This document shows positions 12,111 to 12,251 of a DNA stretch of 21,512 nucleotides, one piece after another. Position numbers and translations under genes: made by a program. The DNA comes from a virus (taxonomy: Duplodnaviria; Heunggongvirae; Uroviricota; Caudoviricetes). Position 1 is the stretch's first letter; the number at the start of each line of letters is the position of its first letter. The notes beneath the pieces are model-generated. The model saw only the letters and a list, made by a program, of their open reading frames with translations, was not told where the DNA came from and ran no database searches. The DNA lies in the IMG/VR virus record IMGVR_UViG_2681813321_000021, one strand, 5' to 3'.

Positions 12111-12251
12111 ATGTCGCAAAAATCGCTTACGGCCATCACGTTCTGCGTGACGGCAATCCTCATCATCTGGATGCTGCACGGTTCGCTGTGCGAAATACGG
12201 ATGAGCTTCTGGGGAGCGGAGTTTGCGGCGTTCTTACAGTGTAAGCAGTAA
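12111..12251 (+). CDS. Hok/Gef-family type I toxin (46 aa); not in the ORF track because it is under 60 aa
   Basis: MSQKSLTAITFCVTAILIIWMLHGSLCEIRMSFWGAEFAAFLQCKQ: N-terminal TM helix followed by SLCEIR...E.AAF..C, closest to HokA/Hok as I recall them. GGAGCA RBS 8 bp upstream. Confidence 0.7.
   Translation: MSQKSLTAITFCVTAILIIWMLHGSLCEIRMSFWGAEFAAFLQCKQ

Follow-up and report, generated by a model that had tools for sequence, protein, structure and literature searches.

The DNA described here is a stretch of 21,512 nucleotides held as IMG/VR virus record IMGVR_UViG_2681813321_000021, which is called the window below. Its host is Escherichia coli, and the element that it carries is a P88-like (Xuanwuvirus, Peduoviridae), P2-like prophage inserted between pdxB and flk. 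Close to the right end of this prophage, on the plus strand and 190 nt past the end of the gene ogr, an open reading frame (ORF) with an ATG start and a TAA stop (12111-12251) encodes a peptide of 46 amino acids (aa), MSQKSLTAITFCVTAILIIWMLHGSLCEIRMSFWGAEFAAFLQCKQ, and is embedded in a hok-type module that extends from about 11930 to 12322 (roughly 395 bp). The locus is very probably a hok/sok-type type I toxin-antitoxin (TA) module, present as an accessory gene directly after ogr. An earlier, sequence-only reading had described the ORF as an unlisted Hok/Gef-family gene: it was indeed missing from the ORF track on which that reading relied, whereas RefSeq annotates it as "Hok/Gef family protein" (WP_000078916.1).

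At the protein level, the product is a member of the Hok/Gef family. The peptide matches Pfam HOK_GEF (PF01848) with 29.9 bits (E 4e-7), above the gathering score of 22, with residues 7-44 aligned to positions 5-42 of the 42 in the profile, and it matches PHROG 251 with 80.6 bits (E 1e-22). The best NCBIfam match is HokA (NF007290; 34 bits, E 2e-8), and since this score lies far under the equivalog cut-off of 89, the gene is HokA-like and not hokA. Identity amounts to 43% with HokA of E. coli K-12 and to 39% over 31 aa with Hok of plasmid R1. Residues 5-22 form a hydrophobic helix (Kyte-Doolittle 15-residue mean up to 2.55), and the Hok core is present as SLCEIR (25-30), E37, AAF (39-41) and C44. 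Thus, the Hok/Gef ORF after ogr, its transmembrane helix, its SLCEIR...E.AAF..C core and an alignment to Hok proteins beyond chance, which the sequence-only reading had proposed or set as a check, have all been borne out. The family has recently been surveyed in a preprint by Escalera-Maurer et al. (2026), in which 44,248 Hok homologues were catalogued and found to be enriched in prophages (bioRxiv 10.1101/2025.08.07.668861). Seven positions are more than 80% conserved across 1264 Hok peptides in that work (bioRxiv 10.1101/2025.08.07.668861), and all seven are kept here (M1, C12, T14, L26, C27, E28 and E37, corresponding to M1, C16, T18, L30, C31, E32 and E41 in the alignment to R1 Hok). The peptide belongs to the 46-aa clade nearest HokA, which is cluster 72 of the preprint, and is identical to entry 72_1621 of this high-abundance cluster, one of the homologues selected for toxicity drop assays (bioRxiv 10.1101/2025.08.07.668861). 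According to the available text of the preprint, 42 of the 45 homologues tested were toxic, and the three entries named as non-toxic are other sequences (bioRxiv 10.1101/2025.08.07.668861). In comparisons with 15 diverged relatives whose ORFs have the same length, dN/dS does not exceed 0.37 and ranges from 0.10 to 0.37 where non-synonymous changes occur; the peptide is under purifying selection. A six-frame translation of the window revealed no second Hok-like ORF.

The RNA features described below were compared across an alignment of 18 distinct loci from E. coli, E. albertii, Salmonella, Klebsiella oxytoca, Citrobacter braakii, phage P88 and Stx phages. A species-level genome scan yielded 7 loci, three of them under titles of unrelated taxa, and the diversity of the sample was taken from protein-based contig look-ups. 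Copies of hok were seen in contigs titled as a Planococcaceae metagenome-assembled genome, Vagococcus sp. and Xanthomonas pisi (L008, L009 and L012, with 98%, 98% and 72% protein identity), of which at least the first two look like contamination or mis-binned Enterobacteriaceae DNA. In a further E. coli prophage locus (L025, 1692-1832), the leader is near-identical to that of the window, but hok itself has diverged strongly in its coding part (pN 0.29, pS 0.67), which suggests recombination inside the module.

The leader upstream of the toxin gene is of the hok type. Rfam family RF01794 ("sok") matches the plus strand at 11965-12124 over its full model length (43.6 bits, E 3e-8), a match that was found under an E-value threshold, the whole-window Rfam search at the gathering threshold having given nothing. 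The same model scores 33-57 bits in relatives from the clade, 87 in R1 and 118 in K-12 hokC. Because the R1 and hokC matches lie on the hok strand, opposite the annotated sokC, RF01794 describes the sense leader between the 5' end of the mRNA and the hok AUG, and its first position thus puts the start of the transcript at about 11965. A predicted hok promoter, read by hand, lies just upstream on the plus strand (-35 TTGCCG at 11930-11935, a 17-nt spacer and -10 TAGATT at 11953-11958); its -10 element reads TAGATT, TAGAAT or TAAATT in most related loci, and the similarity between copies in different genomic contexts starts at about the -35. The predicted transcript opens with a tac-like box, GGGUGCCUUUCGGCU (11965-11979), whose first nine nucleotides, GGGUGCCUU (11965-11973), are perfectly complementary to 12308-12316, the end of an fbi-like box, AGGUCGAUAAGGCACCC (12300-12316). 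In the minimum free energy (MFE) fold of 11965-12325 the first 15 nt are paired with 12300-12316 (z = -7.3), and this pairing of the 5' end with the fbi-like box is the MFE solution in all 18 full-length homologues. Within this helix the first 7 pairs vary little or not at all, and each of the following 4 covaries between lineages (UA/CG, CG/GC, GC/AU). Over the whole consensus structure there are 71 pairs, with 97.9% of cells paired and 14 pairs changed on both sides; none of 500 shuffled controls reached the observed consensus pairing and covariation, and slid controls were about 40% paired. The hok-type leader and the fold-back that the sequence-only reading had anticipated are therefore recovered, as are its nested palindromes, in the form of four inverted repeats (11965-11973/12308-12316, 11966-11975/12014-12023, 12035-12056/12078-12099 and 12261-12269/12274-12282). 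Its description of the leader as GC-rich does not hold, since the GC content of 0.49-0.53 is similar to that of the flanking phage DNA.

The 5' box has a second potential partner, a ucb-like box, UGUGGAAAGGCCCC, at 12011-12023, which becomes available in the predicted structures once the 3' end is removed. When the last 40 nt are omitted from the RNA, the 5' box re-pairs with 12011-12023 in the MFE fold, and among the 18 truncated homologues the 5' end moves to this internal box in 11 and to a nearby hairpin in 6. Three tac-ucb pairs change on both sides (alignment columns 33, 34 and 37 with 74, 73 and 70), and these positions of the tac box also show covariation with fbi. Coupled covariation of this kind was reportedly the signature by which Gultyaev, Franch and Gerdes defined the hok mRNA folding pathway in 1997. 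A dcb-like box, CCGAGGCCCUAACC (12043-12056, including GAGG at 12045-12048), likewise exchanges partners, being paired to 12018-12025 when the RNA is folded whole and to 12078-12089 once it is truncated. Past the stop codon, a stable stem-loop (12255-12290, with the core GACGGGGGA/UCCCCCGUC at 12261-12282) was found both by folding and as an inverted repeat; it shows double compensatory changes in 5 of its 9 pairs and, by analogy with R1, is likely to be the point at which trimming from the 3' end would stop.

On the opposite strand, sequence and structure give good, if indirect, support to the prediction of a Sok-like antisense RNA, which the sequence-only reading had raised as a possibility. 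From its fold and position, this RNA would run over some 58 nt from about 12069 to about 12012, both ends being approximate. Its first 13 nt would form a single-stranded 5' tail, followed by a long hairpin, made up of the stem GGCCUCGG/CCGGGGCC and an inner stem, and by the tail UUUCC. The fold has an energy of -24.1 kcal/mol (z = -3.7), and the antisense strand folds 9.3 kcal/mol better on average than the sense strand, being favoured in 18 of 18 homologues; the inner stem varies in sequence between lineages with its pairing kept. Relative to the hok start the predicted RNA occupies about -42 to -99, to be compared with -49 to -107 for the annotated K-12 sokC. A putative minus-strand promoter was read by hand at 12077-12105 (-35 TTGCTC at 12105-12100, a 17-nt spacer and -10 TAACCT at 12082-12077), presumably placed as the R1 sok promoter is. 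Its -10 element is TAACCT, TAATCT or TATCCT in every one of the 18 loci, and its -35 is TTGCTC, TTGACT or TTTACT; this conservation does not count as independent evidence, because the promoter overlaps the hok Shine-Dalgarno (SD) sequence and its hairpin. The region of the 5' tail is the most variable stretch of the module, as would be expected if the tail sets specificity among paralogous copies.

Translation of the toxin would be held back by a hairpin at 12082-12110 that is predicted to sequester the hok ribosome-binding site (RBS). Its base is formed by AGCGC/GCGCU, with the anti-SD CCUCCC at 12086-12091 and the SD GGAG at 12099-12102, and the helix (columns 146-150/171-175) is 98.9% paired across the alignment. 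Further upstream, the GAGG of the dcb-like box corresponds to the mok SD of R1. The sole candidate in the window for mok-like coupling is a leader ORF of 37 codons (11981-12094, plus strand). It begins with an AUG at 11981, has an in-frame GUG at 12011 behind GAAGG, and stops with TGA (12092-12094) within the SD hairpin, at a distance of 16 nt from the hok AUG. Judged by its position in the sequence, this frame could serve as the coupling frame; among close relatives, however, it terminates at positions between -16 and -56, and the Salmonella/Klebsiella lineage lacks its start codons.

The hok/sok system of plasmid R1, worked out in the Gerdes laboratory, is the model for the mechanism that these features suggest. 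A stable hok mRNA would start near 11965 and be inert, its 5' box paired with 12300-12316 and its RBS locked in the hairpin. Slow 3' trimming to the stem-loop at 12255-12290 would free the 5' box, which would then pair with the internal box at 12011-12023 and so remodel the leader. The short, unstable antisense RNA (about 12069 to 12012) would bind the remodelled leader, block expression and trigger decay; if antisense synthesis stopped, the peptide would be made, insert in the inner membrane and kill or lyse the cell. The step at which the RBS opens is left unaccounted for in this scheme, because the canonical mok frame is absent.

The module lies at the right end of the conserved backbone of its prophage. 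Its upstream neighbour, the late-gene activator ogr (11660-11920, plus strand; Pfam Ogr_Delta, 57.8 bits, and RefSeq annotation), stands outside the module. Several complete E. coli genomes match the 1.1 kb around the hok ORF with 100% identity, and the hok locus is 100% identical to that of Xuanwuvirus P88_4B11 and 94.5% identical to that of phage P88, the gene being annotated in both. Among 5426 complete E. coli genomes, the 410-bp hok locus is present in 1545 (about 28%) and an intact ogr-hok junction in 1185 (22%). The gene order D-ogr-hok recurs at other integration sites, beside serS, raiA and yecA/tRNA-Leu, and also in a Salmonella P2-like prophage beside ihfA. Further relatives lie after lom in Stx phages, where the copy shows 81% DNA identity to the window, and after the tail-fibre genes of a lambdoid Salmonella prophage.

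Some of these relatives show particular arrangements. At the end of a lambdoid prophage in Salmonella (L018, about 1300-1400), unrelated sequence stands in place of the 5' box region with the remaining module kept, so that this is probably a 5'-truncated locus; its neighbours, by their Pfam domains, are a cation-efflux gene and a phosphofructokinase gene. Two other Salmonella contigs carry tandem whole hok modules about 490 bp apart (L020, 1501-1641 and 1991-2131; L021, 1501-1641 and 1995-2135), and the two copies do not have the same predicted antisense 5' tail. In a Salmonella P2-like prophage locus, the small RNA STnc540 of Rfam (171.6 bits) lies directly 3' of hok on the minus strand (L016, 1795-1992), just before the host gene for an HU/IHF-type DNA-binding protein. 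Finally, E. coli 2013C-3513 (L027, 1240-1831) has only ogr and hok annotated of a P2-like prophage, flanked by yecA and a tRNA-Leu/Cys/Gly cluster; the retention of hok in such a remnant fits an addiction effect, as a single anecdote.

Downstream, the conserved part of the module ends at 12317-12325. P88 backbone homology stops at 12322. The sequence-only reading had placed the gene at a prophage/island boundary; the locus does lie where the backbone homology ends, but the edge of the element itself is not reached there, since attR lies at 15387-15404 and hok is thus 3 kb inside it. The att core, ATTTTC(A/C)TCAACAAGGAT, was derived from comparison with the empty K-12 pdxB-flk site and has one mismatch, reading ATTTTCCTCAACAAGGAT at attR; no exact direct repeat of at least 12 nt was found between the int side and the region past hok. 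In 12 of 14 related loci a textbook intrinsic terminator follows 20-35 nt past the fbi box (AAACCCGCAGCGTAAAAACTGCGGGTTTTCTTTTT in P88). This terminator is lost in the window because cargo begins there, about 6 nt past the fbi-like box, and the Stx-phage copy likewise lacks it. No U-tract accompanies the hairpin seen at about 12352-12373 (GAGGTTCG...CGAACCTC), so that, with the terminator gone, hok transcription may continue towards the first cargo gene.

The cargo between hok and attR (12323-15404) amounts to about 3 kb and is AT-rich, with a GC content of 0.32-0.40 over the profiled 12520-13469. Its first gene encodes a RES domain and is split in two ORFs (12661-12909 and 12915-13493) because a C-run at about 12882 has lost one nucleotide, as judged against strain FHI_NMBU_03, in which RefSeq annotates a single 275-aa "RES family NAD+ phosphorylase"; the P88_4B11 record is split as in the window. 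It is followed by a zinc-ribbon ORF (14021-14353) and a VasI/TagO-like ORF (14358-15251; Pfam VasI, 91.5 bits). The RES cargo adjoins hok in 66 of the 5426 complete genomes: the first 1.2 kb of the cargo, including the RES gene, was found in 66, which equals the count with the whole ogr-hok-RES stretch.

Several observations weigh against the reading of the locus as a hok/sok-type module. The 43.6 bits of the leader do not reach the RF01794 gathering score of 59. A consensus promoter scan of 11600-12700 reported no promoter on either strand, both predicted promoters being weak by consensus, and their placement consequently rests on hand reading and positional homology. The covariation mostly separates two lineages among the 18 loci and so reflects few independent events. 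The plus strand of 11600-12700 contains no terminator-like site, the post-fbi terminator included, which leaves the 3' end of the full-length mRNA undefined. As to toxicity, the assays of entry 72_1621 concern overexpression and are reported in a preprint, and the result for this entry is deduced from the available text and table, which give none for the individual construct. The idea that 3' trimming frees the hok RBS, which came from the truncated MFE structure, was tried and rejected: ensemble folding of the 18 homologues keeps the SD paired, its unpaired probability being 0.02-0.06 in full-length and truncated RNA alike, and the opening of the RBS is therefore not explained by the predicted folds. 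Lastly, neither the window nor any of the 18 loci has an ATG, GTG or TTG at the canonical mok position past GAGG (12045-12048), and ORF analysis of the 18 leaders uncovered no conserved reading frame, both frames and ends differing. The mok-like frame envisaged in the sequence-only reading could not be established on either count.

Since a canonical mok start is missing from all 18 loci, its absence is a feature of the clade and not of local decay. It is conceivable, if doubtful, that the 46-aa Hok clade represents a mok-independent hok/sok variant in which toxin translation is controlled by the RNA switch alone. The anti-SD arm (12082-12091) would then alternate between the hok RBS and the dcb-like box at 12045-12056, and 3' trimming together with antisense RNA binding would decide with which of the two it pairs. 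If this were true, the switch in this window would also have to work without a terminator of its own.

What a hok/sok-type module might do for this prophage can be considered on the same basis. The sequence-only reading had suggested stabilisation or abortive infection. Post-segregational killing that keeps the prophage arm in place is a plausible role, one that we favour tentatively. Another possibility, to which we give less credence, is a part in the lytic cycle: antisense RNA would be lost on induction, Hok would damage the membrane, and lysis would come earlier with more phage released. The precedent is hokW-sokW of the Stx2 prophage Sp5, whose deletion halves Sp5 release and whose toxin appears after mitomycin C in a RecA-dependent manner (PMC8621323); in the literature found, this is the sole prophage Hok with a demonstrated role, namely in aiding lysis and phage release on induction, and nothing specific was found there on hok in P2-like prophages. 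Since hok follows directly on ogr and the tail gene D and is separated from ogr by no terminator-like site, late transcription could read into hok. However, HokW belongs to a different cluster (35_712) and a lambdoid phage, and P88-like phages encode their own holin, endolysin and spanin.

A role in abortive infection, in which transcription shut-off by an invader would deplete the antisense RNA and release Hok, is unlikely. In its favour, R1 hok/sok on a high-copy plasmid lowered T4 plating, as cited in PMC8621323, and the locus adjoins variable cargo before attR that includes a RES-domain toxin gene. On the other hand, that RES gene is frameshifted in the window, and the available text of the family survey reports no hok enrichment near defence systems (bioRxiv 10.1101/2025.08.07.668861). 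Purely selfish persistence is rather improbable.

It is improbable that this hok copy is in decay or silenced in the manner of the chromosomal loci of K-12, that is, a readable gene no longer regulated or expressed as a working TA pair. The missing canonical mok start, the loss of the post-fbi terminator to the cargo insertion and an RBS predicted closed in both RNA forms would agree with decay, and K-12 hokA and hokC, with insertion sequence (IS) elements beside them, offer a precedent for disabled loci; Pedersen and Gerdes reportedly found in 1999 that IS insertions disable hok loci in K-12. Yet the promoter, the tac, ucb and dcb boxes, the antisense hairpin, the SD hairpin, the ORF, the 3' stem-loop and fbi are all intact, conserved or covarying, the selection on the peptide is purifying, and the locus persists in 1545 of the 5426 genomes. 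That the ORF is open by chance and resembles Hok by accident, for which nothing but its small size speaks, is refuted by the family profile scores and the conservation.

Modules of this kind are known, widespread and correctly annotated, and the gene, its family, its prophage enrichment and the inclusion of the identical peptide in a set tested for toxicity had all been reported before, so that nothing in the locus changes the field. For annotation, it is of value that a toxin gene of 46 codons, under common ORF cut-offs, is real, and that hok marks the right end of the conserved backbone in a very common type of E. coli prophage. Specialists may find interest in a clade that combines coupled tac/ucb/fbi covariation with the lack of a recognisable mok, and in the role of hok in P2-like prophages.

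When compared with known systems, the locus does not differ at the protein level from Hok cluster 72, WP_000078916.1 and PHROG 251 ("MokW-like host killing"), and many E. coli genomes carry the same RefSeq annotation at this position. Such phage labels raised the idea that the locus is hokW, which was ruled out: the HokW of PMC8621323 is a 51-aa HokD-like peptide (MKQQKAM...) from a different cluster, 35_712, so that the PHROG label does not denote identity with hokW. The hokW-sokW module of the Stx2 prophage Sp5/933W resembles the present one in being a prophage-borne hok/sok module, while lying in a lambdoid phage, and the Stx-phage copy that resembles the window is a second locus, separate from hokW-sokW. 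The closest characterised protein is K-12 HokA (43%), with 50 aa in place of 46; K-12 hokA has an overlapping annotated mokA and an adjoining IS150, whereas the locus in the window is prophage-borne and has no evident mok. Unlike R1 hok/sok (parB), it has no start codon where mok begins in R1 and no post-fbi terminator, it resides in a prophage and not on a plasmid, and its protein is about 39% identical over 31 aa. Like R1, it combines a small membrane toxin with an RF01794-type leader, a 5'-3' fold-back and an alternative internal partner for the 5' box, as well as a predicted antisense hairpin with a G-U where the sense strand has a C-A mismatch, a GAGG box at the corresponding place in the leader and a stable stem-loop 3' of the stop codon. 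As mok, Sok and mRNA structure were deliberately placed outside the family survey (bioRxiv 10.1101/2025.08.07.668861), the RNA anatomy described here adds detail to its account of cluster 72.

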